A stretch of 64,000 bases of DNA from a phage, in the NCBI GenBank assembly GCA_025823825.1, contig GCA_025823825.1_4720.1; one strand, 5' to 3'. Below are positions 2,789-57,117 of the stretch, one piece after another. A model generated the notes under the pieces. It had not been told where the DNA came from and did no database searches. It saw nothing but the letters and a program-made list of their open reading frames with translations. The position numbers and the translations under genes are program-made. The first letter of the stretch is position 1, and every line of letters starts with the position of its first letter.

Positions 2789-3262
2789 ATGCCAGTTTCA
2801 TCCAAACCAAGAAAAAAATCAGTAGGAAAACCGAAAGCTCAGGAAACAACAGCAATTCGTTGGGACGAGTTACGTGAACCTATCGAAAACTGCGAATTGT
2901 TATTGGGCACCCTGGGTGCGGCTATTTACCAAGCGACGCAGCCCTGTCGTTTACGATTAACCCAAAACAAACGTGATGAGTTCGTTGCGTTATCAACAAG
3001 CACGAATAAAGATCTGACCGAACTTCAAACCGAGTTGACGACGATCAAGAACTCCATTACGCCGATGTACGGTAAAGAAGTCGATGAACAAAGTATTCTG
3101 TTACAGTACAACTACGGGATGTCGTTAATGAACATCCTGGAACGCGCATCCGATATTCTGCGTCCTGACGTTGCACGCCTGAGCCAACTGCGTGTTGAAG
3201 GGATGGAGAACCAGATCCGATTCGCTAACAGTGTTAAATCTCAAGGAGCCACCGAAGCATGA
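2789..3262 (+). CDS. hypothetical protein (157 aa), basic N-terminus
   Basis: ATG preceded by AGGAGT; stop TGA overlaps the ATG of the next gene (ATGA). Confidence 0.6.
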   Translation: MPVSSKPRKKSVGKPKAQETTAIRWDELREPIENCELLLGTLGAAIYQATQPCRLRLTQNKRDEFVALSTSTNKDLTELQTELTTIKNSITPMYGKEVDEQSILLQYNYGMSLMNILERASDILRPDVARLSQLRVEGMENQIRFANSVKSQGATEA

Positions 3263-5942: not shown

Positions 5943-6317
5943 TTAATGTTCGTTCCAGATGGCATCTTCCGGTGGAACAATAGGATCTTTCTTCGGCATT
6001 GATGGCACTTCATGACGATGCTTACGGAACTGCCTATCAATAACCTCACGAAGCCGGTACGCGTCAACCCAGGTTGATTTATTGAACAGCTCCAACGTCA
6101 CAGTTAATCGTGTTCTTGACATTGAATAGCTTTTCTTCGCAATCAAATTGGGATAATTCAGTTGAGCGAACCACGCACGTATTTGTGCTTCGGTAAAAGC
6201 GATGCTGTAATAACTAAGTTTACCGTCATTAAAATCGTGCGCGTGGGTGTAACGTCCAGCGTAACGCCAGACAAGATGCACATTCAGATCGATCCATGGT
6301 GGGGTGGTATCAGCCAT
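5943..6317 (-). CDS. hypothetical protein (124 aa)
   Basis: Minus-strand ORF convergent with 5368..5877; no motif recognised. Confidence 0.5.
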   Translation of the reverse strand: MADTTPPWIDLNVHLVWRYAGRYTHAHDFNDGKLSYYSIAFTEAQIRAWFAQLNYPNLIAKKSYSMSRTRLTVTLELFNKSTWVDAYRLREVIDRQFRKHRHEVPSMPKKDPIVPPEDAIWNEH

Positions 6318-6326
6318 GTGTTACCC

Positions 6327-6896
6327 TCAACGATTCTTCATCACTTTACCCAGGCTTTCGATATTATCCCAAAAGCGATTTTTACTTGGCGCATCGCCGA
6401 CGATAACCGACATCAAATCGCGACGTTCACGACTGATGATGCCCTGTGATTTCCAGATCACCATCGTCCAGCAAGCAGCCAGAACGAACAGATGATTAAT
6501 ACTCGGTTTGGTTTGCGCGATGAACGCGAGCCATGCCCAGATACCGGTATATACTATCGTCACTAAAAAGAGCGAGATTGTTGCAACGACAACAACGAAG
6601 TTTTGGACAGCGGGTTGATTCGCGTTATCATGAATAGCGGTAAGATCAGGAAGGTTACCTTCAACTGAACTCGTTTCATCGATTTCCAATTCTTCGATTT
6701 CTTTTCGTGTGTCGGGAGCTAATCCGGCATCATCAAGATGCTTTTTTAACCGCTGTATACTTAATCGTTGACCGATAGGAATGTTGATGTTGTCGTAACT
6801 ATTAAGCGCATCAACCAGGGAGCGCCCGTCAACGAGAACCAAGCTCGCAGTACCCATTGTCTGCGGTTTTATTTTGTAAAGGTCTTTTACTTTCAT
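6327..6896 (-). CDS. membrane protein (C-terminal hydrophobic segments)
   Basis: Hydrophobic stretches VVVVATISLFLVTIVYTGIWAWLAFI and LFVLAACWTMVIW. Confidence 0.5.
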   Translation of the reverse strand: MKVKDLYKIKPQTMGTASLVLVDGRSLVDALNSYDNINIPIGQRLSIQRLKKHLDDAGLAPDTRKEIEELEIDETSSVEGNLPDLTAIHDNANQPAVQNFVVVVATISLFLVTIVYTGIWAWLAFIAQTKPSINHLFVLAACWTMVIWKSQGIISRERRDLMSVIVGDAPSKNRFWDNIESLGKVMKNR

Positions 6897-9552: not shown

Positions 9553-10194
9553 TTAGATGTACTGCTTACCGCCCACGAAGGAAGTTAACCAGTTCCCGCT
9601 GACGAGTTGTGATACCCAACCTGGAACGGCTCTACCATTCTGGCTCATGATGTTACCACACCAACCAGGGAATCCGGGACGGATGTAATAGAAAGTTAAA
9701 TTGTAGAGATGGCAATTCCATACCGCAACGTTATGTTTACCAGAAACCGCTTTAAAGATAAACGCGACAGGTAACGGAGACGATAACAATTCGGTCACAG
9801 GGACGGCTGACCAGTTCGCATTCGCGTTCCATGGTTGCCAGGTATGGCTACGCGAGTCACCGTTAACGTTACCGTTGCTACCGCGTCCGCCCGCGTTCCA
9901 CCAAAGCGATGGACTCATGTTCTTAAGTGAGGTAAATTGCTGTGGTGGAATATTCGGAATGATAACAGGGTTGGTACCTTGTCCGTGTTTCTTTTCTTTT
10001 GCGTTCACATAGCCGTTTATCGATTCCAGGTATTTGGTACCAGGATAATTGTTCTGGACTTGTGTCGCAATATCACGAACATCGAACGTCCAGCAGATCA
10101 TGGTGTTGTAGTAAGCATCGGTGTTGTCGTACCATGCGTTACCATCTTGTAAACGTGCGCCACTATTCGGTGTTTTATCTGTGTTTATAGCCAT
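9553..10194 (-). CDS. hypothetical protein, paralogue of 10306..10971 (possible fibre-associated adhesin)
   Basis: C-terminus RPGFPGWCGNIMSQNGRAVPGWVSQLVSGNWLTSFVGGKQYI nearly identical to that of 10306..10971. Confidence 0.55.
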   Translation of the reverse strand: MAINTDKTPNSGARLQDGNAWYDNTDAYYNTMICWTFDVRDIATQVQNNYPGTKYLESINGYVNAKEKKHGQGTNPVIIPNIPPQQFTSLKNMSPSLWWNAGGRGSNGNVNGDSRSHTWQPWNANANWSAVPVTELLSSPLPVAFIFKAVSGKHNVAVWNCHLYNLTFYYIRPGFPGWCGNIMSQNGRAVPGWVSQLVSGNWLTSFVGGKQYI

Positions 10195-10305: not shown

Positions 10306-10971
10306 TTAAATTGAAGTTAGATATTGTTTACCTCCAACAAACGACGTTAACCAATTACCTGAAACAAGTTGCGATGCCCAGCCAGGCACTGCCCTACCGT
10401 TCTGGCTCATCACGTTACCTGCCCATCCCGGAAAACCCGGTCGGAAAATATATACTTGAATATGTGTTAAAGCGTTATCATTACCACTGCCAACAGCAAC
10501 GTTACGACTCCCAGATGACGGGAAATATTCTTTTAAGAACAGAGGATCGGTTGCTAATAAAGATGCGGGCCAAGGGTTCGCGGATGCATCAACATCGAAT
10601 TCGGTCCATCGCCATTTACGTCCCGTGTCGAACCATGTCGATGTACCACCACCCCTCACGGCAAGATTGCGCGCATCACGGACATTATAAATTGATTCGA
10701 TGTTACGCCATCCACCTTTTGCAGCGTTTGCTGCATAGCAAACCGCATTACCACCATTCTTCTTCTCGTAAACGGTTCGTTTGATATGAACACGGTCGAT
10801 GAACGCTTCACCGTATTTGTTGACGAGCGTTTGTGCGATATCACGAAGATCGTGCATGTGAAAAGCGATGTCTTCGTTATGGAACCATGTTGTCTGGTTC
10901 CAGACGGTACCGTTTGGTTCGGCACACATCGATCGGATATTGTTGCGTTGATTAATCGCGATAAAACCCAT
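10306..10971 (-). CDS. hypothetical protein, paralogue of 9553..10194
   Basis: Shared C-terminal block; start set at ATG 10971 (MGFIAINQ...) just after a terminator hairpin and T-rich tract. Confidence 0.55.
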   Translation of the reverse strand: MGFIAINQRNNIRSMCAEPNGTVWNQTTWFHNEDIAFHMHDLRDIAQTLVNKYGEAFIDRVHIKRTVYEKKNGGNAVCYAANAAKGGWRNIESIYNVRDARNLAVRGGGTSTWFDTGRKWRWTEFDVDASANPWPASLLATDPLFLKEYFPSSGSRNVAVGSGNDNALTHIQVYIFRPGFPGWAGNVMSQNGRAVPGWASQLVSGNWLTSFVGGKQYLTSI

Positions 10972-11026
10972 TGTATACCTCGTTCCTATTCTCAAAAAGG
11001 AAATTTCATACGATGACGCCATAGCA

Positions 11027-11056
11027 GCTCCTCCTTCCCTTACGGGTTGGAGGAGC
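11027..11056 (-). terminator. intrinsic terminator-like stem-loop (GCTCCTCC...GGAGGAGC)
   Basis: 8-bp GC-rich stem followed on the minus strand by a T-rich tract, downstream of 11065..11571. Confidence 0.5.
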
Positions 11057-11064
11057 ATACTTAA

Positions 11065-11571: not shown

Positions 11572-11619
11572 TAGATTTCCTTATGTGTTAACGGAAGTGA
11601 CTTCCATAAGGATTGATGA

Positions 11620-12009
11620 TTACTTTTTGAGCGCTTTAAGTTCTTCTTCCAACGCTTCCACTTTTGCCGTAAGCTTCTGTACTTGTTTGATTAATGGAAC
11701 CACCAAACGTTCGTACATAACACCTTCAGCGACGAGTCCGTTAGAAGAAACGATAGCGGGGTCATCTTCTTCGGTTGCATCACGCCAGTGCACGTACTGC
11801 GGTGCGATCTCACCAACCTCTTCAGCAATCAACCCATACCAACCCCAATCCTTGTTGTCTGCTTCACATGTGGAACGATACCAAACAGGACGCATCTCCA
11901 ATACTTTATCCGCTTGTTCATCCGTGATATTCTCGATATCTTTCTTATAGCGACGCGACGACGTTGAACGAAACACATTGTTGATCCCAGAAACAGGACT
12001 GATATACAT
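11620..12009 (-). CDS. S74-type intramolecular chaperone domain protein (free-standing)
   Basis: SRRYKKDIENI...WYGLIAEEVGEIAPQYV...VMYERLVVPLIKQVQKLTAKVEALEEELKALKK matches the layout of the C-terminal chaperone domain of endosialidase-type fibres. Confidence 0.6.
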   Translation of the reverse strand: MYISPVSGINNVFRSTSSRRYKKDIENITDEQADKVLEMRPVWYRSTCEADNKDWGWYGLIAEEVGEIAPQYVHWRDATEEDDPAIVSSNGLVAEGVMYERLVVPLIKQVQKLTAKVEALEEELKALKK

Positions 12010-12058
12010 GTTAGCCCCGCTGGTTGTAGTGCTAATGTCCCATACCGCAAATCCGCCG

Positions 12059-15000
12059 TTACTCCCATTTTTTTACGATCAATGTGTTGGCAATAATGTC
12101 CAGGTTATTGTCGTAACCGGTTAATTGTCTTTCCGTTACATAACTGGATAGATTGACCGAGTAGTTCTTACTGTTATAACAACGACGCCATCCTGGGCTG
12201 TTGGTACTGCCATTATAGTTGTCGTAGCTATAAATGAACTCGGAGTTGGTTTTCGCACCACTGACGGAAGACGTGGTTGCGGTCGTAACACGGATGGTAT
12301 AGTTTGTCATCCCGAAGCTAACGACCTCGATAACAGCACCAGCCAGAGGGATAATACCGCACTTGGTTTCACTGTCTGGGATGTATGCGCTGTCGGCAGC
12401 TGCGAAGGAGCAACGTGCGACCCAGGCGCGGGTATTGAATGCACCTTGGTTTTGCAACAACGTGATAAACGATGAGGTCGTAATCGAGCTGTTATTATCA
12501 CCGGTGATCAACCAGCCGGTCGGGCATGCGGTTGCGCCAACGTTTTTCGCTGTTAACGTGATGTTCTGCGATCCGTCGAAGGCTACGCCACTGATAGTGC
12601 GCGCAGTCTGCAGTTTCGTCGCCGTTGCTGCGTTCCCTGATGTGTTCTGGTTCCCTGCGGCGTTAACACCCGGCAGATTGATATTCGCACTACCGTCGAA
12701 AGACACCCCACCAATGGTGCGGGCGGTTTTCAGTTTTGTCGCCGTGGCGGCATTACCGGTCGTGTCTTGGTTACCGGTGGTGTTTACCCCAGGTAGGTTG
12801 ATATTGGCCGTTCCGTTAAATGAAACACCACCAATCGTCCGTGCCGTTTGCAACTTCGTTGCGGATGCCGCATTCCCCGTGGTGTTTTGGTTACCTGTTG
12901 TATTCACACCTGGGATACTATCCTTAGATGTGTAGATCTGTGCCCATTCCGACCAGTTCGCATCTGATGCATCACGACGCGAACGTAGGTAAGCTGGAGC
13001 GTGTGCGCCTGAAGTACCTGACCATCCAATAAGGATCTCACCTTCACCTACTGCGGTTGCTCCTTTAAGATGAACAACGTTACCGTAGGCTGTAGGGTAT
13101 CCGTTATTGTACGCTTCATACATCTGGATGCCCGTATTGCTGCCCTGGGTCGCATTAGCTAAAGCGGTGACTCGTCCCATGGAAGCGAGCACGTTAATGC
13201 TAAAGCTAATATCAGTTGTACCATCAAAGGCGACCCCATTAATCTTCCGTGCTGTTTGGAGTTTCGTGGCAGTAGCCGCATTACCAGAGGTACTCTGATT
13301 ACCTGCTTTGTTCACGCCTGGTAAATCAATGTTGGCGGTTCCATCAAAGGACACACCCCCTATGGTTCTCGCCGTCTGAAGTTTTGTTGCTGAACCGGCG
13401 TTTCCGGAAGTGCTTTGATTACCCGCCGCGTTAACACCCGGTAGGTTAATGCTAGCAGAACCATCAAAAGAAACACCACCGATTGTGACAGCCGTTTTCA
13501 ATTTCGTGGCTGTCGCAGCGTTACCCGTTGTATTCTGATTGCCAGCTGCATTGACGCCAGGTAATGCGATATCAGCTGTGCCATCGAACGCGACACCGCC
13601 TATTTTACGGGCGGTTTGTAGCTTGGTTGCTGTAGCGGCATTACCGCTGGTATTTTGCGTACCGGCTTTATTTACACCGGGAAGATCGATGTTAGCAGAA
13701 CCGTCGAAGCTGACGCCACCTATTGTTCTTGCGGTAGCGAGTTTAGTTGCTGTGGTTGCAGCATTACCAGCCTTTAACCATTCGCCCCATGGGCCATCCA
13801 CGCCGTTCCATGAAGCTGTTAAACTACGTACGTAAATATTTCCTGTACGTACGGTGTAACGCTGTGTTCCACCGAATTGCCCAGCTGGGAGCACTTCGAT
13901 GTAACCTACTGCGTTTGCTTCAGGGAAATTGTGGGCAGCATCAGCATTCGTTGACGTTTGTTTGGACCAAATACCCACAGACGCTTCAACCGGACCGTAG
14001 GTATTTAGATTCGCATCGGTGGGAAGCTGTCCTCGGAAACGTCGGAATAATGAAGCTGTTAACCCCAACGTTGTTTGCATCCCTTCAATGCTTGACTGCG
14101 ATAAAAGCGCCCGAGCTGTCGACGTGATAGCCGCTAAAGCAACCTTATCCGTACCGGTAAAATACGGGAATTTGTTTGCTGAAGTTGCTAAACCTGAAAG
14201 GGCGGTCAGTAATGCGTTAAGGGGTTGTTTCCCAGCCAGCGCGTTAGTTACTGTTGTTGCGAAATTAGGGTCGTTGCCTAAAGCTTGAGCCAGCTCATTA
14301 AGCGTATTTAGCGCTTCTGGCGACGAGTCGATCAGTGATGCGATAGCACGCATCACAAATTCCGTGTTGGCGATCTGTTGACTGCTATCGTTATCTGCAG
14401 CCGTAGGTGCTGCTGGGATACCGGTGAACACAGGGTTATTAAGATCTGCCTTGAGAGCGATGAGACGTCTAAGCGCTTCGACATCGACTTTCAGGTTTTC
14501 CCATCCGACGAGATAACCATCACCGGTTGTATGATAACGGTTGTACCAAAAATCACCATTGACACCGAAATAGAATATTCCTTTCTCTTCGTATTGTGGG
14601 CCGGAACTGTTCCGTGATGAGCTAATGTATTTTATTTCGATAAGGCCGTCGAATACCACTCCTGGGATGATTTTATTATTTCCAGCTGGCTGTGATACTT
14701 GGTACATCCCCGGGGTTGCGGCTTTAACCCACGTTAAGAATTCTGTTACTCCGGCGCTACCACTGAAATTCTTAACGTCGGTAAGTATCGCCCCATAACC
14801 GAACATACCGGGTAGAGCAACTCGTCCGCTGGTACGGTCACGAATATTTGATGCGACGACAGGCAGCTGTTTACGAACATTGTTAACCGCCTTAGGTGTG
14901 GCCGATTTTGTCTCGTCATCGCTATCGATGGCGTTGCTCAGGATGGTCAGTCCTCGAGTATTTGTGGTCGCATCAGGAAGAAACGCGTTATCCAACACCT

Positions 15001-15418
15001 TAAGTTGTACAGCGCTCGTGTTACTAACAACGAGATACATCTGACAGTTAAGAACGCTGGATGCACCTTCAGTAGGCACCGGCTTATATCTTTCCGGTGC
15101 GCTGCAAACAGCGATCAGAACACCCTGATCGTCATACAGACCGATTTCACGTACCCAGAATCCACCTTGGTTTACAGGAATAATACCCTCAACAATAATC
15201 CTGGTTGTGTCATCCGTATCGACACGGATATTAGCAACTTCCCCACGATAAACTTCGTGTACGAGCGCTGTTTGACCAACAGCCGGTGTCGGTATCGACC
15301 CGTTACCATCGCCAACAGCAAAATGTGTGATTTTTAGTTTCTCGCCACCAGGAAGTAGTGCGGCGGCGATACGTTCAGCGCCTTTATCGGTAATGACCGT
15401 TTTATATGTTGTACTCAT
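12059..15418 (-). CDS. long tail fibre protein, P2 gpH-like N-terminus with tandem fibre repeats
   Basis: N-terminus TVITDKGAERIAAALLPGGEKLKITHFAVGDGNGSIPTPAVGQTALVHEVYRGEV and block IANTEFVMRAIASLIDSSPEALNTLNELAQALGNDPNFATT resemble P2 gpH; about ten repeats of ...GNAATATKLQTARTIGGVSFDGSANIDLPGVN... Confidence 0.85.
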   Translation of the reverse strand: MSTTYKTVITDKGAERIAAALLPGGEKLKITHFAVGDGNGSIPTPAVGQTALVHEVYRGEVANIRVDTDDTTRIIVEGIIPVNQGGFWVREIGLYDDQGVLIAVCSAPERYKPVPTEGASSVLNCQMYLVVSNTSAVQLKVLDNAFLPDATTNTRGLTILSNAIDSDDETKSATPKAVNNVRKQLPVVASNIRDRTSGRVALPGMFGYGAILTDVKNFSGSAGVTEFLTWVKAATPGMYQVSQPAGNNKIIPGVVFDGLIEIKYISSSRNSSGPQYEEKGIFYFGVNGDFWYNRYHTTGDGYLVGWENLKVDVEALRRLIALKADLNNPVFTGIPAAPTAADNDSSQQIANTEFVMRAIASLIDSSPEALNTLNELAQALGNDPNFATTVTNALAGKQPLNALLTALSGLATSANKFPYFTGTDKVALAAITSTARALLSQSSIEGMQTTLGLTASLFRRFRGQLPTDANLNTYGPVEASVGIWSKQTSTNADAAHNFPEANAVGYIEVLPAGQFGGTQRYTVRTGNIYVRSLTASWNGVDGPWGEWLKAGNAATTATKLATARTIGGVSFDGSANIDLPGVNKAGTQNTSGNAATATKLQTARKIGGVAFDGTADIALPGVNAAGNQNTTGNAATATKLKTAVTIGGVSFDGSASINLPGVNAAGNQSTSGNAGSATKLQTARTIGGVSFDGTANIDLPGVNKAGNQSTSGNAATATKLQTARKINGVAFDGTTDISFSINVLASMGRVTALANATQGSNTGIQMYEAYNNGYPTAYGNVVHLKGATAVGEGEILIGWSGTSGAHAPAYLRSRRDASDANWSEWAQIYTSKDSIPGVNTTGNQNTTGNAASATKLQTARTIGGVSFNGTANINLPGVNTTGNQDTTGNAATATKLKTARTIGGVSFDGSANINLPGVNAAGNQNTSGNAATATKLQTARTISGVAFDGSQNITLTAKNVGATACPTGWLITGDNNSSITTSSFITLLQNQGAFNTRAWVARCSFAAADSAYIPDSETKCGIIPLAGAVIEVVSFGMTNYTIRVTTATTSSVSGAKTNSEFIYSYDNYNGSTNSPGWRRCYNSKNYSVNLSSYVTERQLTGYDNNLDIIANTLIVKKWE
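12580..13790 (-). repeat. in-frame tandem repeats (~28-40 aa units) within the tail fibre gene, two blocks
   Basis: Repeated ATKLQTAR(T/K)IGGVxFDG motif in the translation; antisense shadow ORFs also repetitive; coordinates approximate. Confidence 0.6.
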
Positions 15419-15424
15419 GGCGTT

Positions 15425-15952
15425 TTATCCCGGGTAAATAGTGATGGTGTCACCAACGATAGTTGTAGCACCGGCGTAAAGATACGCTGGTGATGCCTCA
15501 CGTTGGTTTGTCACGATAAGATCCAGTCTCCCACGCCAAACCACGGAGGTATTCGCGATGGGAATCGAGATCTTCTTGGAAGTATCGTCACGAAAATTAA
15601 TGGCGGTAGCAAGGGTAACTGAATCAAAATCAACGTCGGGTTCAAAGTTGAATCCGTATTGATCTGAAATAGCTTGAATAACCGCTCTTATGGTTGTTGT
15701 TTCAACCGACTCCAAAACGATTTTTATCGGTATTCCTAGAAATGCTTTCGCGATATCACGTCGTGTGTAAGTGATAAAACTTTCACCACACCACCTTGTT
15801 CCTTCATTTGCTGTGACGATCACTTTTGCCCTGTTAGCACCAGAACTCCCATCCAGGGTTAAAGTGAGATCGGAGTTGCTGAATACACTACCGTTACGTT
15901 GGTTTATCAACGTAATAAGTTCGTCTTTCCATGGTGGGTAAAGTGAACGCAT
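15425..15952 (-). CDS. fibre adaptor module protein (shared N-terminal module only, ~175 aa)
   Basis: Start ATG 15952 (MRSLYPPWKDELITLINQRN) with GGAGGAGG 8 nt upstream; TAA is in frame with and 6 nt upstream of the fibre ATG. Confidence 0.55.
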   Translation of the reverse strand: MRSLYPPWKDELITLINQRNGSVFSNSDLTLTLDGSSGANRAKVIVTANEGTRWCGESFITYTRRDIAKAFLGIPIKIVLESVETTTIRAVIQAISDQYGFNFEPDVDFDSVTLATAINFRDDTSKKISIPIANTSVVWRGRLDLIVTNQREASPAYLYAGATTIVGDTITIYPG

Positions 15953-15992
15953 ATGCGCACCCTCCTCCAATAATCAAATTAAAATGCAAAAC

Positions 15993-16063: not shown

Positions 16064-16084
16064 TACCCCCCCCCCTCGACGAAG
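16064..16084 (-). repeat. C10 homopolymer with flank TA-C10-TCGACGAAG (copy 1)
   Basis: Ten C at 16066-16075; same flanks as the C11 tract at 34212-34222. Confidence 0.7.
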
Positions 16085-16107: not shown

Positions 16108-17862
16108 TTATGCTGCTACATACCCAGGCCAACGTTCTCTTGGCCAGTTTGTTGCGCCCTGTCCAACGTTGTCCTTACCAGAAGTTACATTACTTACATC
16201 CCAACCACTAAGATCCTGGTTAAATGCGGTGTTGTTACGCATCATGAGGTCGATATTACGTAATGATTGGGTATTCCAGCCGGAAATGTCTTGGTTGAAT
16301 GCCGTGTTGTAAGCAAACATGTTAACAACGTTTTGTAATTTTGAAGTGTTCCAGCCGCTAATATCGCCATTGAACTGCATGTTCGAGAACATACTGCTAG
16401 CATCGATAAGACTATCTGTTTTCCAGTTAACCAGCTTGTTCTCATCAAGTGCGTTGCAACTACTGAACATGTAACTCATGTTGTTAACTTTGGATACATC
16501 CCATTTATCTAACCCGTTACCAACGAACTCGTAACAAGCTTGGAACATCCAGCTCATGTCGGTAACCTGGCACACATTCCATTTGCTAAAGTCGAGGTTG
16601 AGTTTTGCGCATCCGGAGAAAGTTTTATACATACTGGTGATACGACTAACATCCCATTCTTGAATGTTAGGATCATTAAGTATAGATAAGAATTGGAACA
16701 ATCCGTCTAACGACGTCCATTTCTCTGGAATACGGTTTGGTACTGTACGGAGCGATGAAAGGTTATTGGTTGACGGAGAGCGGAACATACCGTTATCCCA
16801 ATTTACGATTTCCGTAATGTTGTACCCACGGATCGTTTGGCGTCCATTACCATTATACACAGACCCTGTTGCAGTTATTGTATATTCGTTTGTATCAGCA
16901 TACGTATATTCAGCCTGTGTAGGCCACTCACCTATTACATCCCTATTCCCATCACCCCAGTCAATGGAAATATCTATCCAACCATCAAGATCTAGGGTAA
17001 CGGTCCCGCCATTGGTCTTCAGGATGTATTTACCTGCATTGTCGGTATAATAACAAACAATCATCGCACCGTACAGGTTACCAATTTGCCAATCATCCTT
17101 TTGAGTTACCGCGATTTGTGCTGTACCACGCTGTAAGAAAAGTACCGTACGGTTCTCGTCAGTCTGTAGTGCGGTTAGTGCTTGAGTCTTATCATCGTCG
17201 GTAATTTCACCGGCTTCCATTAAAGCACTTAACATTCTTTCGAAGTACTCGATAGGCAACTGAGGTCCTACCGACATATCAACTGATGGAACAGTGAGAT
17301 CATCCAATGCTGCTGCCGTTGCGAGGACTAATGATCCCTTGGCGGTGTCTGTTTCTTGGAGGTAACGCAGTCCCGTAATCTGGTACGCTTGAATGATTGT
17401 AATCAGATCCAGTGTATCGTTAATGACCTGTACTTGTAAATGTCCAGACCAAACATAGCTGCTTTCAGCAATCGGTAATTCGACCGACTGAATACCCGAC
17501 GTTTCAAAACTGATCTTCTTATTAAGATCGGCTTCCAGGAAATCAACAGCTAGGTCGAAATTTATACCGTACTTCTCAGCGATGGAATCTACAATGTTCC
17601 TGAAAGCAACATCGGTACTTACGATGAAACGTAACGGGATCCCGGTGAACGCGTTGGCAATATCTCGACGAACATACGTGAGCGACTGCTCGAAGAAATA
17701 AGGACTGTTATCTCCAGGTTTGATGGTTACCTGGCATACTTCAGGATGTTCAGCTGGAATGAAAGATTCGAATTTAACGTCGGTTTCCTTCAACGATAGC
17801 ATGTTCTTCCGGTTTACCAACGCCAGAAGATCAGCTTTCCACCCAGGATAAACTGTAGACAT
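16108..17862 (-). CDS. tail fibre-like protein with shared N-terminal module and C-terminal BspA-like (DUF285-type) repeats
   Basis: Start ATG 17862 (MSTVYPGWKADLLALVNRKN) with GGAG upstream; C-terminal repeats WDVSxVxxMxxMFxxxxxFNQDISGWN. Confidence 0.65.
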   Translation of the reverse strand: MSTVYPGWKADLLALVNRKNMLSLKETDVKFESFIPAEHPEVCQVTIKPGDNSPYFFEQSLTYVRRDIANAFTGIPLRFIVSTDVAFRNIVDSIAEKYGINFDLAVDFLEADLNKKISFETSGIQSVELPIAESSYVWSGHLQVQVINDTLDLITIIQAYQITGLRYLQETDTAKGSLVLATAAALDDLTVPSVDMSVGPQLPIEYFERMLSALMEAGEITDDDKTQALTALQTDENRTVLFLQRGTAQIAVTQKDDWQIGNLYGAMIVCYYTDNAGKYILKTNGGTVTLDLDGWIDISIDWGDGNRDVIGEWPTQAEYTYADTNEYTITATGSVYNGNGRQTIRGYNITEIVNWDNGMFRSPSTNNLSSLRTVPNRIPEKWTSLDGLFQFLSILNDPNIQEWDVSRITSMYKTFSGCAKLNLDFSKWNVCQVTDMSWMFQACYEFVGNGLDKWDVSKVNNMSYMFSSCNALDENKLVNWKTDSLIDASSMFSNMQFNGDISGWNTSKLQNVVNMFAYNTAFNQDISGWNTQSLRNIDLMMRNNTAFNQDLSGWDVSNVTSGKDNVGQGATNWPRERWPGYVAA

Positions 17863-18088
17863 AAGCACTCCAATCATGGGGGCGAACGCCCCCCATCAGT
17901 TAAATGATCGTTTACGTCGCGTAAGGGTAATATAATTGCTGTGAGCCATATCAGAAGTTCACAACATTCTGAATCATAAGGTTACGTCGTTGGAAACAAA
18001 CCGATACAGATTCTTCATAGAACATTGAGATGATGGAAACCTAATTCGTACCATGAAAGCCGCAATAAAAAAAAGAAAAATAGGAAAA

Positions 18089-33619: not shown

Positions 33620-33878
33620 TTACGCCAGGCGGTACCACAATACCGGTACGAATCACAGCAGCAACTTCCTGCATGCCCTTACCCTTCAACGCATAGGTTT
33701 CATGTACCACATTACGTCGAGTCGTTAATCCAACAAATTTACATACAACCATGTTGTTTTCTGAAAGATAAGCGGTGTCGAGTTCACCGTGCAACAATTC
33801 TTTTTCTTTGGTATCAATACCTAATAACGCAATTTGATAAGCAGAAAGTTTCCAATAACGCATAATCGTCCTATTCAT
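33570..33878 (-). CDS. hypothetical protein (102 aa)
   Basis: Minus-strand ORF overlapping both neighbours; start uncertain. Confidence 0.35.
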   Translation of the reverse strand: MNRTIMRYWKLSAYQIALLGIDTKEKELLHGELDTAYLSENNMVVCKFVGLTTRRNVVHETYALKGKGMQEVAAVIRTGIVVPPGVSDNLDEVLHGTRKTAR

Positions 33879-34698
33879 AAACTATCAAATATTCTGAAAC
33901 CAAGTTTCTTGTTTCTACTTTTGCCGAAATCGTTCTTCGTACAGTTACAGGGTACAATTTTGTCGCCGAACTATAAATCTCTTCAGTCAACGCACAAGCA
34001 CTGTTGCTAATGATTGTAGGAATTCCCCGCGAGCGCAAGTTGTCAGCCTTTTCTGCAAGATAACGATGATCGTCTAATGTAAACCCCTCTTGAGTATAGC
34101 CCGTAAACGATGCGGTGGGGGAAATGGGAATATAAGGAGGGTCGCAATAAACGACGTCACCCGGAACCACCTTTTCAAGATGCTTCTGGAACCCACCACT
34201 TACAATTTCTACCCCCCCCCCCTCGACGAAGGCAGCCTGAAGATGGTTCGCTGCCAGACGCAATTCCTGTTTCGGGAAATAGACGGTCTTATACCGCCCA
34301 TGCGCAACATTAAATAAACCATCACGATTATAACGACATAAGCCATTGAAACCGTAACGGTTTAAATACATGAAGCAAACTGCGCGTTCCCACGGATCTT
34401 CAGCGCGGTTAAAACGTTCACGTATCTCGTAGTAGCTTCTGACGTCGGTAGGATCCGTTTGAAAAAGACGTTCCACTTCTTCGATGAAAGATTCTGGACG
34501 CGCTAGCAACGCAGACCATACTGAGAGAATATCCTCATTCGCATCACCTATCGAATACGCTGGGTACTTAAGAGCAAGCGTAACAGCGCCGGAACCAACG
34601 AATGGTTCAACAAGACGCTTTCCTTTAGGTAACACTTTTTCAATCTCAGGGATAAGCCTGGTTTTGTTCCCAAGCCATTTAAGAAATGTTCTGCTCAT
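33871..34698 (-). CDS. dam: Dam-type DNA N6-adenine methyltransferase
   Basis: N-terminal FLKWLGNKTRL and EPFVGSGAV, catalytic motif VVYCDPPY, NRYGFNGLCRYN block; contains a G11 run encoding EGGGV. Confidence 0.85.
   Translation of the reverse strand: MSRTFLKWLGNKTRLIPEIEKVLPKGKRLVEPFVGSGAVTLALKYPAYSIGDANEDILSVWSALLARPESFIEEVERLFQTDPTDVRSYYEIRERFNRAEDPWERAVCFMYLNRYGFNGLCRYNRDGLFNVAHGRYKTVYFPKQELRLAANHLQAAFVEGGGVEIVSGGFQKHLEKVVPGDVVYCDPPYIPISPTASFTGYTQEGFTLDDHRYLAEKADNLRSRGIPTIISNSACALTEEIYSSATKLYPVTVRRTISAKVETRNLVSEYLIVYE
34210..34231 (-). repeat. C11 homopolymer with flank TA-C11-TCGACGAAG (copy 2), inside dam
   Basis: Eleven C at 34212-34222 on plus strand, G11 on the dam coding strand. 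Confidence 0.7.
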
Positions 34699-35113
34699 CG
34701 ATTGGCGTTCCGATAATGTTGATGACTATTTCCGTTCGAACCGGATTGGTCAGTACGGCCTGCATGCGTTCAAGCATTGTTGGGTTATCCGTAACCACCA
34801 CATCGGCGTAACACAACGGATGACTTTCGAATGCTTCGGTGTCACTTACTAACAGAACACCCATCACATTTACGTATTGCGGTATGCGTCCACGGATGCG
34901 TTGCCACATGTCTTGAGTAAGGTCTTCGTTTTCTAATGCCACCACGATGACAGGGCTGATATTTACCGGGAAACGCGGATGCACCGTGCGGCGAAAGGTC
35001 ACCCAGCTTTCGACGTGGGATAATGCAAGTTCGAGAGAACAGCACTTTGGAGAAATCTGTATGTTTATTTGCTGAATCAATGAAAGGGGGTTTTGTACAG
35101 TCGCTTCAGCCAT
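34679..35113 (-). CDS. hypothetical protein (144 aa)
   Basis: Minus-strand ORF; no motif recognised. Confidence 0.45.
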   Translation of the reverse strand: MAEATVQNPLSLIQQINIQISPKCCSLELALSHVESWVTFRRTVHPRFPVNISPVIVVALENEDLTQDMWQRIRGRIPQYVNVMGVLLVSDTEAFESHPLCYADVVVTDNPTMLERMQAVLTNPVRTEIVINIIGTPIDEQNIS

Positions 35114-36936: not shown

Positions 36937-37171
36937 TGCGTCTTATTCCGCGTCTGTTTTCTTAACATGGACACATTCCGCATCGATAGTCACGCCAGTA
37001 GAACGATTGGTCTCGTTGGTAGAATCAAATCCGCTGTTGAACAACATTGCGAACGTATTATTATCCATACGAGCAAAGGTCTCCGCAATACGATCGGGAT
37101 GAAAATCGGTGCGGTTGATGGTCGATTTCACAAAAACTCCTATAAACAAAAATTAATTATTGATGTTAAAA

Positions 37172-55647: not shown

Positions 55648-57102
55648 ATGAAACTCAAACAAAGCTGGAAAGACGAACTTCTCGCGTTAGTAAACAACAA
55701 AAACAGTTTACAGCTGACATTAGACGACGTAAAATTTGAACTAACTGAACCGGTAAGCGAAGTGCCCGGAACAGTCGTCGTTACGATCAAACCGAACGAT
55801 GATAGCCGTTACTTTAACGAGCAGTCTCTGACCTACATCCGTCGAGACATCGCTAAAAACTTCACCGGGATCCCGTTACGTGTTATCGTTAAAAATGATA
55901 CCGTCGTAAGGGATATCATCAATACGATTGCTGAACGTTACGGATTGGTATTTGACACAACCGTTGACTTCCTCGAATCAGAGCTGAATAAGCAGATTAC
56001 GTTCGAAGACACCGGTATTAAAGACATTACGGTTCCGGTTGCAAACACGTCTTATGTTTGGGCTGGTAATCTTCAGTTCAATATCGCTAACGATACGTTA
56101 AGCTTGATTACGATCATCAAGGAAACCAATCTTACGAATCTGGTTTATCTGGATGGCGTTGAAGCTGACACAACCGGATCGTTATTATTAGCAACGGCCT
56201 CGATTATCGACGATAACGGAAATACCGAAACAACTGAAGGTGTCCTTGATGCCGAGTACTTCCAGAATGTCCTGAATGTCATGGTTCGTTATGGTGATAT
56301 TACCAGCGAACAAATGCAACAAGCAATGCAGACAATTAACCAAAACGAAGACGTTCGTGAAGTGGAGGTTAAGTCATACGGCGACTCTGAGCTGTTGGTA
56401 ACCACAAAGAAAGATTGGGCTATCGGTAACCTTAAGGGCGCTATGGCAGTTGTTCGCAACGCTCAACCGAAACCAATTCAGTACATTCTCAAAACGAATG
56501 GCGGCTCCGTTACACTAGCATTGGACGGTTGGACAAATATTTCCATCGATTGGGGTGATGGGAATAAAGCAACATTACCAGGCGGACAAACTCGCGGATT
56601 CCACGAATACAGTGACGGTACAGAACGTACGATTGTAGCTACTGGTGTCCTCTCAAACCCTGAAGCACCAACACAGACACAAACCATCAGCGGCGATAAC
56701 ATCACTGAAATCGTTGACTGGAACAACGGATTACCGCAGGCTGTACAATTAACGGGATTAACCAGTTTGATTAAGGTTCCCGATTATATCCCGTCATACT
56801 GGACAACGTTGGAAAGTTTGTTCGAGAGCTGCTCATCGATAAACGACGTAAACATCACGAAATGGAATACCGGTAACGTCACATCAATGAAGAATTTGTT
56901 CTTTGGCTGTAACGTCTTCAACCAACCGATCATCGTATGGGATGTTACCCATGTAACAAATATCGACAATATGTTCTCGGGATGTTCGGCGTTCAACCAG
57001 GATCTAAGGATGTGGTCATTCCCAGCGGATACTTCCCGCAACAACTACGATAACGGTGCTACAGCCTGGCGGTCAGAGTATCGTCCAAGCTTCGATTTGT
57101 AA
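55648..57102 (+). CDS. tail fibre-like protein with shared N-terminal module and C-terminal BspA-like repeats (remote, opposite-strand paralogue)
   Basis: N-terminus MKLKQSWKDELLALVNNKNSLQLTLDDVKF... paralogous to 16108..17862; C-terminal ...VFNQPIIVWDVTHVTNIDNMFSGCSAFNQDL. Confidence 0.65.
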   Translation: MKLKQSWKDELLALVNNKNSLQLTLDDVKFELTEPVSEVPGTVVVTIKPNDDSRYFNEQSLTYIRRDIAKNFTGIPLRVIVKNDTVVRDIINTIAERYGLVFDTTVDFLESELNKQITFEDTGIKDITVPVANTSYVWAGNLQFNIANDTLSLITIIKETNLTNLVYLDGVEADTTGSLLLATASIIDDNGNTETTEGVLDAEYFQNVLNVMVRYGDITSEQMQQAMQTINQNEDVREVEVKSYGDSELLVTTKKDWAIGNLKGAMAVVRNAQPKPIQYILKTNGGSVTLALDGWTNISIDWGDGNKATLPGGQTRGFHEYSDGTERTIVATGVLSNPEAPTQTQTISGDNITEIVDWNNGLPQAVQLTGLTSLIKVPDYIPSYWTTLESLFESCSSINDVNITKWNTGNVTSMKNLFFGCNVFNQPIIVWDVTHVTNIDNMFSGCSAFNQDLRMWSFPADTSRNNYDNGATAWRSEYRPSFDL

Positions 57103-57117
57103 AAAAAAAAAAAAAAA
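57101..57117 (+). repeat. A17 homopolymer starting within the stop codon of 55648..57102
   Basis: Seventeen consecutive A; reads as T17 on the minus strand directly after the stem-loop. Confidence 0.8.

Follow-up and report, generated by a model that had tools for sequence, protein, structure and literature searches.

An extra A in a homopolymer run separates tail fibre from S74 chaperone domain in an assembled Goslar-like jumbo phage

Phage K1F endosialidase and the T5 L-shaped tail fibre pb1 carry S74/ICA domains, whose Ser/Lys dyad has been defined through the equivalents of MYRF S578 and K583, and endosialidases without the ICA domain fail to fold or trimerise (PMC3742443). In the jumbo phage Goslar, gp90 is a virion protein, and the phage also bears a 'cloud' of DUF7941 fibres and collar filaments. 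In laboratory phage lambda (lambda PaPa), Hendrix and Duda (1992) reportedly described a one-base frameshift that, compared with Ur-lambda, breaks the side tail fibre gene stf into two ORFs; lambda PaPa is viable because its other receptor-binding proteins suffice. Here we consider a Goslar-like E. coli jumbo phage, taken from an NCBI third-party assembly of an E. coli isolate and analysed as a single stretch of 64,000 nucleotides (the window), in which a long tail fibre and an S74 domain of the same Pfam family as those of K1F and T5 pb1 lie next to each other in two different frames.

The fibre locus and its two frames

The features of the locus are as follows.

12059..15418, minus strand: truncated tail-fibre ORF of 1119 aa, ending in IVKKWE and a stop (ORF list; Pfam; identical to HCQ4163554.1)
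12068..12074, minus strand: A7 run, site of a +1 insertion, A6 in relatives (comparison with 11 related loci)
11962..12072, minus strand: conserved pre-cleavage segment KNGSNGGFAVWDISTTTSGANMYISPVSGINNVFRST, in the chaperone frame (tblastn, alignment A1)
11620..12009, minus strand: 129-aa ORF with the S74/ICA intramolecular chaperone domain and a C-terminal coiled-coil tail (Pfam PF13884)
11609..12558, minus strand: tip-plus-chaperone cassette without DNA similarity to Goslar (blastn against Goslar)

The fibre is of the P2 gpH / P1 gpS type, with an N-terminal tail-collar fibre domain (PF12571 Phage_tail_fib, E 1.5e-43, residues 1-141, plus PF03406), then repeats of ~45 aa in a long array, and at the distal end a tip domain; its exact sequence is deposited at NCBI as 'TPA: phage tail protein [Escherichia coli]'. 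Its last codons read GTA AAA AAA TGG GAG TAA, with the stop at 12059-12061; the minus-strand A7 run in these codons (a T7 on the plus strand) is one of seven homopolymers of at least 7 nt in the whole 64-kb window.

The 129-aa ORF, identical to NCBI HCQ4163553.1, matches PF13884 Peptidase_S74 (E 1.6e-9, 38.3 bits against a cut-off of 22) with its residues 17-73 (nt 11791-11961), and the match spans profile positions 1-57 of 58, so that the domain is indeed complete, as a first-pass annotation had claimed. Two further 129-aa database records exist, P0123 and P0128. The motif S-S-R-R-Y-K holds a Ser and a Lys five residues apart, namely the predicted catalytic/cleavage Ser17 (codon 11959-11961) and Lys22 (codon 11944-11946), and this dyad is invariant, as S93 and K98, in the 11-sequence alignment A1. 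The ORF is also weakly similar to a chain of a solved T5-type L-shaped tail fibre (8hqz_d, E 1.3e-4). Upstream of its ATG at 12009, which is preceded by a weak GGGG Shine-Dalgarno-like element, its frame runs on through 21 further open codons to a TAA at 12073-12075 that overlaps the A7 run.

That the fibre and the S74 ORF are split at this run, that the chaperone frame is open back to a stop within it and that one fewer A would fuse the two had all been proposed in the first-pass annotation, and all three points hold: in-silico deletion of one A yields a 1265-aa fibre–S74 product with the junction ...IVKNGSNGGFAVWDISTTTSGANMYISPVSG..., and peptides of the NGSNGGFAVWDISTTTSGANMYISPVSGINNVFRST region would exist only if the two frames were joined. 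One detail of that annotation needs correction; the run does not sit at the junction of fibre and chaperone but 33 codons upstream of the cleavage serine, within the conserved pre-cleavage segment.

The run in relatives, and readings in which the split has a function

Is the split found in other phages? Comparison with related phages, which the first-pass annotation had suggested as a check, gives a uniform answer: the run is A6 in 11/11 related loci, which read GTA AAA AAT/C GGG (Val-Lys-Asn-Gly), and none is broken at the site, making the window the only A7 among 12 sequences. Across the related loci the ORF is continuous, and the number of repeats sets its length, between 838 and 1480 aa; three fragmentary metagenome contigs break elsewhere, in the repeat array. 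Two of the relatives, L015 and L017, are independent contigs from two different metagenome assemblies, and each is 99.9% identical to the window (over 12.5 kb with 8 substitutions and over 7.1 kb with 6 substitutions, respectively), each with two homopolymer indels, of which the A-run is one. In the ~2.7 kb that align to L013, L014 and L006, the A-run is the sole indel. At the protein level, the 1265-aa P0138 shares 1263/1265 residues with the hypothetical fusion, the junction being identical, and most members listed in the fibre's 90%-identity cluster are 1265 aa long. Distant homologues (P0003, P0004 and P0011, 48-61% identity) are likewise unbroken across the site, as are the 231-aa proteins of Warwickvirus; P0003 and P0004 are E. 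coli and E. albertii prophage fibres, each of which covers 99% of the tip-plus-S74 query as one protein. Loci L013 and L014 were considered as independent split alleles on account of a 129-aa product on record, and were rejected when their DNA proved to be A6 with a continuous 1480-aa ORF, which makes that record an annotation quirk. A search for the junction pattern with any run length gave no match in IMG/VR viral contigs or GTDB genome contigs and a single match in metagenome contigs, a duplicate of L008, and so no further alleles.

In relatives, the mature fibre ends with the segment between the run and the cleavage site; alignment A1 is conserved on both sides of the run, and tblastn homology to Warwickvirus proteins starts directly after the run, upstream of ATG 12009. 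In the window, 21 codons of this segment precede the first start codon and, going by the sequence, would be untranslated. In all relatives the fibre polypeptide ends in the S74 domain, which takes up the final ~115 residues, and the place of the domain in cis at the fibre C-terminus, which the first-pass annotation had described as usual and which is lost in the window, is found in all 11 related loci and in the distant homologues; the family assignment thus holds for the gene lineage, with the window copy as a disrupted member. The downstream frame is without decay. Relative to L007, the S74 ORF has 21 synonymous against 2 non-synonymous changes, and the stretch from run to ATG has 3 against 0; relative to L006, the counts are 1 and 0, and 0 and 0. 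The split is very recent in origin. As all relatives, near-identical ones included, have an intact single gene, the split looks like an ordinary one-off frameshift lesion.

Could the split nonetheless be of use, with the 129-aa ORF translated from ATG 12009 and chaperoning the truncated fibre in trans? The weak GGGG element before the ATG would suit such a role, in Goslar the fibre tip is served by an assembly protein that is encoded apart from it (gp089), and stand-alone S74 proteins of 227-231 aa, annotated as lateral tail fibre chaperones, occur in Warwickvirus. Those proteins, however, keep ~70 aa or more of their own passenger before the cleavage site, and 0/215 homologues found is a complete protein of ~130 aa. 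The putative ribosome-binding site is identical in fused relatives and is thus not selected, the fibre would be without 33 conserved residues that are normally templated by the ICA domain, and the split is unique to one sample. A literature search for an S74 domain acting in trans found nothing directly relevant. Phage Sharanji was set aside as an unrelated Asteriusvirus. Of all the readings considered here, a split that works in trans is the one to which we give the least credence.

A recoding site would be another way to rescue the fibre; here, a +1 (or -2) ribosomal frameshift or RNA-polymerase slippage on A7 would make some full-length fusion, as a designed feature or as useful leakiness. 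A7 is a slippery sequence, one fewer A gives exactly the conserved fusion, and chimalliviruses transcribe their late genes with an RNA polymerase that the phage itself encodes. Yet the out-of-frame arrangement is kept in 0/11 relatives, and more distant homologues lack the run at the protein level, with VVKSGG or other sequence in its place (alignment A1). Nor are stimulatory elements seen: RNA structure in the 109 nt downstream of the run does not go beyond chance (z = 0.57; 136/200 shuffles fold as well), the sequence upstream of the run holds no Shine-Dalgarno-like element, and the codon in the A site at the run is UGG, neither a stop nor rare. The sequence flanking the run is the same in the window and in the in-frame relatives. 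Additionally, the common -1 shift enters a meaningless 79-aa frame, and transcriptional slippage is known to become efficient at run lengths of about 9 and above. We therefore regard recoding as very unlikely. Of the three options that the first-pass annotation had offered, A6 in 11/11 relatives speaks against a +1 frameshift or slippage site and leaves a recent split or an error as the supported ones.

Alternatively, the tract might be hypermutable and toggle the fibre reversibly between ON and OFF in phage populations, as a contingency switch. Two poly-G tracts in the same genome, one inside a Dam-like methyltransferase gene and one upstream of the fibre gene cluster, vary in length between near-identical genomes or assemblies, and repeat-length variation thus does occur in this phage group. 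Against such a switch, an A-run of six or seven bases is short for a contingency locus, A7 occurs in one sequence of the 12, and the run is made by ordinary Val-Lys-Asn codons that more distant homologues have not kept. A toggling A-run is, in our estimate, hardly to be expected. We would place equally little trust in the broader proposal that the A6/A7 tract and the two poly-G tracts form a reversible switch set for tail fibre and DNA methyltransferase; such a set could serve a Goslar-like jumbo phage that persists in bacterial cultures, and occasional slippage on A7 might still yield small amounts of the full-length fibre.

Reliability of the run length and the favoured reading

The main rival to a mutation is an error: the true genome would be A6, with an intact 1265-aa gene, and the extra A would be a homopolymer miscall in both assemblies of one read set. 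How far can the run length be trusted? The change is a +1 within a homopolymer, and the downstream frame is perfectly preserved. The sole other indel relative to the 99.9%-identical relatives is also homopolymeric (G10 vs G11), and the two assemblies of the sample differ at a G11/G12 run; taken together, these observations mean that homopolymer lengths in these data are not fully reliable.

Several results weigh on the other side. The exact 1119-aa protein is listed from both NCBI and Logan: L022, a Logan assembly (SRR15970248), has 0 mismatches to the window over 20.6 kb and a fibre gene product of 1119 aa, the call from which its A7 is deduced. That a second assembler, on what is apparently the same sample, also calls the 1119-aa fibre makes an assembler error unlikely; the window and L022 almost certainly go back to one and the same read set, and their agreement is thus no control for a homopolymer error at the level of the reads. 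Over the ~55 kb of the window that can be aligned to Goslar, no other frame-breaking indel occurs in a conserved CDS, with one possible exception, a +2 early in the gp130 homologue, which is a small gene of hypothetical product, and the other A/T runs of 7-8 nt, those at 2812 and 4886, align to Goslar without a gap. As a rule, NCBI TPA isolate assemblies come from Illumina data, in which A7 is not normally error-prone. On balance, we consider an error to be a serious but improbable explanation.

The reading that we favour, and consider probable, is that the one-off change from A6 to A7 is a genuine mutation that split a single fibre–S74 gene, and not programmed recoding. The insertion is present in two separate assemblies and absent from every relative, and we infer that it is a real change in the DNA of the sample rather than a read error. 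In the intact gene, the C-terminal S74/ICA domain would drive trimer folding of the fibre and then cut itself off. The extra A would shift the frame 33 codons before the cleavage serine, such that the fibre stops two codons later (…KKWE), loses the last 33 residues of its mature form together with its covalently attached chaperone, and leaves the S74 domain behind as an orphan 129-aa ORF. By analogy with other S74 proteins, misfolding or a failure to trimerise is the most likely fate of the truncated fibre. The phage can probably do without it, since phages of the Goslar type have many further fibres for host recognition.

In annotation, the two ORFs should appear as a single tail-fibre gene that is disrupted (frameshifted); neither a recoding site nor a fibre plus a 'chaperone' of its own would be the right label. 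Should the mutation prove real, the phage of this isolate is probably without one receptor-binding fibre, and predictions of its host range could be affected.

Comparison with known systems

The closest counterpart in gene order is Goslar gp090, a P1 gpS-like protein annotated as 'similar to gpS [P1]', which is syntenic with the window fibre and shares its N-terminal collar domain and repeat array at 85-87% nucleotide identity. The two differ at the distal end. Nucleotide similarity ends at window position 11608 and restarts at 12559; over these ~950 bp, Goslar has another cassette, with the separate Caudo_TAP assembly protein gp089 at this position, whereas the window lineage has a tip with a built-in S74 chaperone. 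Goslar-like phages thus swap fibre-tip cassettes with different chaperone systems, and such swapping of tip cassettes is a known theme in fibre evolution.

Another counterpart comes from Warwickvirus (Drexlerviridae), where a 231-aa 'putative lateral tail fiber chaperone' (for example, phage PeterMerian bas05_0029) shows 60-65% identity in the pre-cleavage segment and the S74 domain; it differs in that it is short, stands alone and has a coiled-coil N-terminus of its own, instead of forming the end of a fibre of >1000 aa. This chaperone gene, too, lies in two ORFs in the deposited genomes of orkinos, ityhuna and JLBYU07. A conserved slippery site in these homologues was considered and rejected: the orkinos split, which lies at the equivalent position, is a C6 where PeterMerian has C5, without an A-run, and PeterMerian is in frame.

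With the S74 domains of K1F endosialidase and T5 pb1, the window domain shares the invariant Ser/Lys dyad, five residues apart, and the coiled-coil tail that follows it. Unlike in those proteins, the domain is parted from its fibre by a frameshift, and the passenger is a chimallivirus P2 gpH / P1 gpS-type repeat fibre rather than a podovirus tailspike or a siphovirus fibre. As for the lesion, the likeness is to lambda stf, where a single-base frameshift likewise sits in the accessory fibre gene of one strain while relatives are intact; the fibre family and the phage are others, and the loss, which in lambda was shown experimentally, is in the window inferred.

Fibre gene, chaperone domain and distal cassette

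The first-pass annotation had described a tail fibre gene separated from its S74 chaperone domain by a run of seven A residues, with one fewer A joining the two. Sequence, Pfam match and the single 1265-aa product predicted once one A is removed (...IVKNGSNGGFAVWDISTTT...) bear this out.

Features of the fibre locus
12059..15418, minus strand: fibre ORF, 1119 aa, ending GTA AAA AAA TGG GAG TAA
12068-12074, minus strand: A7 run (plus-strand T7), inside the 3' end of the fibre ORF
11620..12009, minus strand: S74 ORF, 129 aa, with a Pfam Peptidase_S74 match

From N- to C-terminus, the fibre comprises a P2 gpH/P1 gpS-type tail-collar fibre domain (PF12571, E 1.5e-43), a long array of repeats and the distal tip. 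The proposal that the next ORF encodes an S74 domain was well founded; its product covers nearly the entire Peptidase_S74 profile (E 1.6e-9, 38.3 bits; Pfam cut-off, 22 bits), and its frame is open for 21 codons 5' of the ATG, up to a TAA at 12073-12075 that overlaps the A-run. The placement of the run at the fibre/chaperone junction was mistaken. From the run there are 33 codons to catalytic Ser17 of the 129-aa ORF, with Lys22 five residues further, and thus the frameshift comes within the conserved pre-cleavage segment, which is kept on the mature fibre.

Over the opening 25 kb (the portion queried), the window shares 94.5% identity with Escherichia phage vB_EcoM_Goslar, a jumbo phage that forms a nucleus, and similarity continues over the remainder (blastn). 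Both products, the 1119-aa fibre and the 129-aa S74 protein, have identical entries side by side among the NCBI third-party-annotation records of an E. coli assembly (HCQ4163554.1, HCQ4163553.1), in which the fibre sits on a 238,021-bp contig. The syntenic fibre of Goslar, gp090, has another distal end, and a Caudo_TAP assembly protein, gp089, is encoded separately after it; the window has a tip and S74 domain there. Since DNA similarity to Goslar breaks off at 11608 and picks up again at 12559 (blastn), the tip and chaperone are a swapped cassette. The same cassette occurs as one protein in prophage or phage-plasmid fibres of E. coli and E. albertii (P0003, P0004; 59-61% identity, 99% coverage).

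In-frame relatives

How is the gene arranged in related phages? This comparison of fused and split forms, suggested in the first-pass annotation, gave A6 in 11 of 11 loci (GTA AAA AAT GGG or GTA AAA AAC GGG); the window alone is out of frame. The loci (L006-L010 and L013-L018, L010 duplicating the L008 record) were taken from metagenomes in ENA, assemblies of Salmonella/E. coli isolates and further assemblies. Continuous fibre–S74 ORFs among them span 838 aa (L016), 1265 aa (L015, L017) and 1480 aa (L013, L014), a spread that reflects repeat number. L015 and L017 originate in two different metagenome assemblies and share 99.9% identity with the window (12.5 kb with 8 substitutions and 7.1 kb with 6, respectively); each shows just two indels, both in homopolymer length, at the A-run and at an intergenic G10/G11 tract (16066-16075).

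Proteins agree. A database search with the hypothetical fused C-terminus found P0001 (99% identical over 100% of the query) and many further continuous proteins; P0138 (1265 aa) matches the fused translation at 1263/1265 residues, and 1265 aa is also the length of most proteins listed in the 90%-identity cluster of the fibre. Distant homologues are also continuous, and in an 11-sequence alignment (A1) conservation crosses the A-run site, for example in P0011 (...LTGYSGNLDIIAETLVVKSGGSGGFAIWDIGTTTSGANMYI...). The run consists of plain Val-Lys-Asn codons and is itself not conserved in more distant homologues.

Several observations concern the relatives themselves. L013 and L014 carry a recorded 129-aa S74 product (6001-6390; ECD4964060.1/ECN8988878.1), with no gene listed for the fibre part. 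We rejected these as split alleles, the DNA being A6 with a single continuous 1480-aa ORF; this annotation quirk could mislead counts of 'split' alleles taken from protein records. Repeats of ~45 aa (...GNAATATKLQTARTIGGVSFDG...NLPGVN...; window ~12560..14900, minus strand) differ widely in copy number, giving fibres of 838, 1265, 1294 and 1480 aa, and the array is the break point of several metagenome contigs. A third tip type without S74 occurs in 1107-aa members ending ...TAGATNQGY. Two paralogous minus-strand ORFs, 9553..10194 (213 aa) and 10306..11058 (250 aa), share their C-terminal ~45 residues (...RPGFPGW.GN.MSQNGRAVPGW.SQLVSGNWLTSFVGGKQY); neither has a Pfam match. The 250-aa paralogue is missing in Goslar, L013 and L014 and present in L007, L015 and L017, with a stop-codon change lengthening it to 255 aa in L015. 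Additionally, Goslar-like contigs (for example GCA_008106945.1, GCA_008102125.1, GCA_958331735.1, GCA_958330855.1 and GCA_020241865.1) occur in NCBI WGS assemblies, some labelled Salmonella or E. coli isolates (L013, L014, L016, L019, L024, L027 and the window's own source); they are mostly 238-241 kb, so near whole-genome, which points to persistence in a carrier state or by pseudolysogeny, or to contamination of cultures.

Origin of the extra A

Against the related locus L007, synonymous/non-synonymous counts are 27/5 in the tip, 3/0 from run to ATG and 21/2 in the S74 ORF. Because substitutions on either side of the run are nearly all synonymous, the downstream frame is undecayed; the lesion is either an artefact or of very recent origin. 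Assembler error is unlikely, as two assemblers agree on A7: L022, a Logan contig of SRR15970248 and apparently the same sample, has 0 mismatches to the window over 20.6 kb and also a 1119-aa fibre product, and NCBI and Logan are both listed as sources of this exact protein. The two assemblies presumably rest on one set of reads and would thus share any systematic read error. Such an error, to which the homopolymer nature of both indels against the 99.9% relatives and a G11/G12 disagreement between the two assemblies also point, ranks second but is improbable; the rest of the window is clean against Goslar: apart from one possible exception near 37148, its indels fall between genes, keep to multiples of three, or compensate each other in pairs within divergent stretches. 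Only 7 homopolymers of at least 7 nt occur in the 64 kb. We favour, with some reservation, a genuine +1 insertion in the sample's phage DNA as the likeliest explanation.

Could recoding at A7 instead yield the full-length fibre–chaperone? We consider this highly unlikely. Fusion would require a +1 or -2 shift, or an mRNA one A shorter, and the usual -1 shift enters a meaningless 79-aa frame. The 109 nt folded 3' of the run show no structure beyond that of shuffled sequence (z = 0.57), the window sequence has no Shine-Dalgarno-like element upstream of it, the A-site codon, UGG, is neither stop nor rare, and the flanks are identical to those of in-frame relatives. Thus, of the slippage site, recent split and homopolymer error first offered as options, the latter two stand; the uniform A6 of relatives and the lack of stimulatory signals speak against a programmed site. 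A contingency switch at the tract, which is A7 in 1 of the 12 sequences compared, is likewise very improbable.

Other tracts in the window do vary. A Dam-like D12 DNA methyltransferase ORF (33871..34725, minus strand), within an ~850-bp insert lacking a Goslar counterpart, has a G11 (34212-34222) at codon 167, upstream of its DPPY motif, and is intact in the window; L022, apparently of the same sample, and L023, from a different one, have G12, which shortens the product to 174 aa. A phase-variable methyltransferase or poly-G sequencing noise is possible. The G10 at 16066-16075 (minus strand) lies between ORFs 16108..17877 and 15425..15970, upstream of the DUF7941/fibre cluster; the window, L007, L019 and L022 have this length, against G11 in L015, L017 and L024. 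Both tracts share the exact flank CTTCGTCGA-G(n)-TA, a 17-nt motif with 2 exact copies in the window versus 0.08 expected by chance. The longest homopolymer, an intergenic A17 (57101-57117; A10 in Goslar), lies just downstream of a BspA-like/DUF285 gene. At 37148, close to the 5' end of the gp130 homologue, a small hypothetical gene (ORF 36943..37149; 68 aa, TTG start; 84 aa in Goslar), a +2 indel relative to Goslar is the sole other possibly frame-affecting difference seen.

Probable consequence for the fibre

ICA/S74 domains serve as a template for the trimeric fold directly upstream of them and are cleaved only after trimerisation, and endosialidases without the domain neither fold nor trimerise (PMC3742443). 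The extra A would shift the frame and cost the fibre its S74 domain and 33 conserved residues; lacking both, the truncated product is probably non-functional. Rescue in trans by the separate 129-aa S74 product is scarcely credible: stand-alone S74 proteins are known, such as the 231-aa proteins of Warwickvirus, but these retain ~70 aa of their own passenger sequence. Several deposited genomes, namely orkinos (L001, 2974-3002; C6 run, C5 in PeterMerian), ityhuna (L004, ~3177-3231) and JLBYU07 (L002, 2841-2917), have the Warwickvirus homologue itself as two ORFs, so broken S74 genes are no rarity in databases.

We read the locus as a common kind of frameshift lesion in a gene of known type, an error being the less likely reading, and its annotation should read as one disrupted fibre–S74 gene. 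Goslar gp90 is a virion protein, but Goslar has collar filaments and numerous 'fibre cloud' proteins (DUF7941) as well; in the window, the fibre is flanked by several DUF7941 genes. With so many other fibre-type proteins, loss of one fibre may be tolerated, as the stf frameshift is in laboratory lambda.
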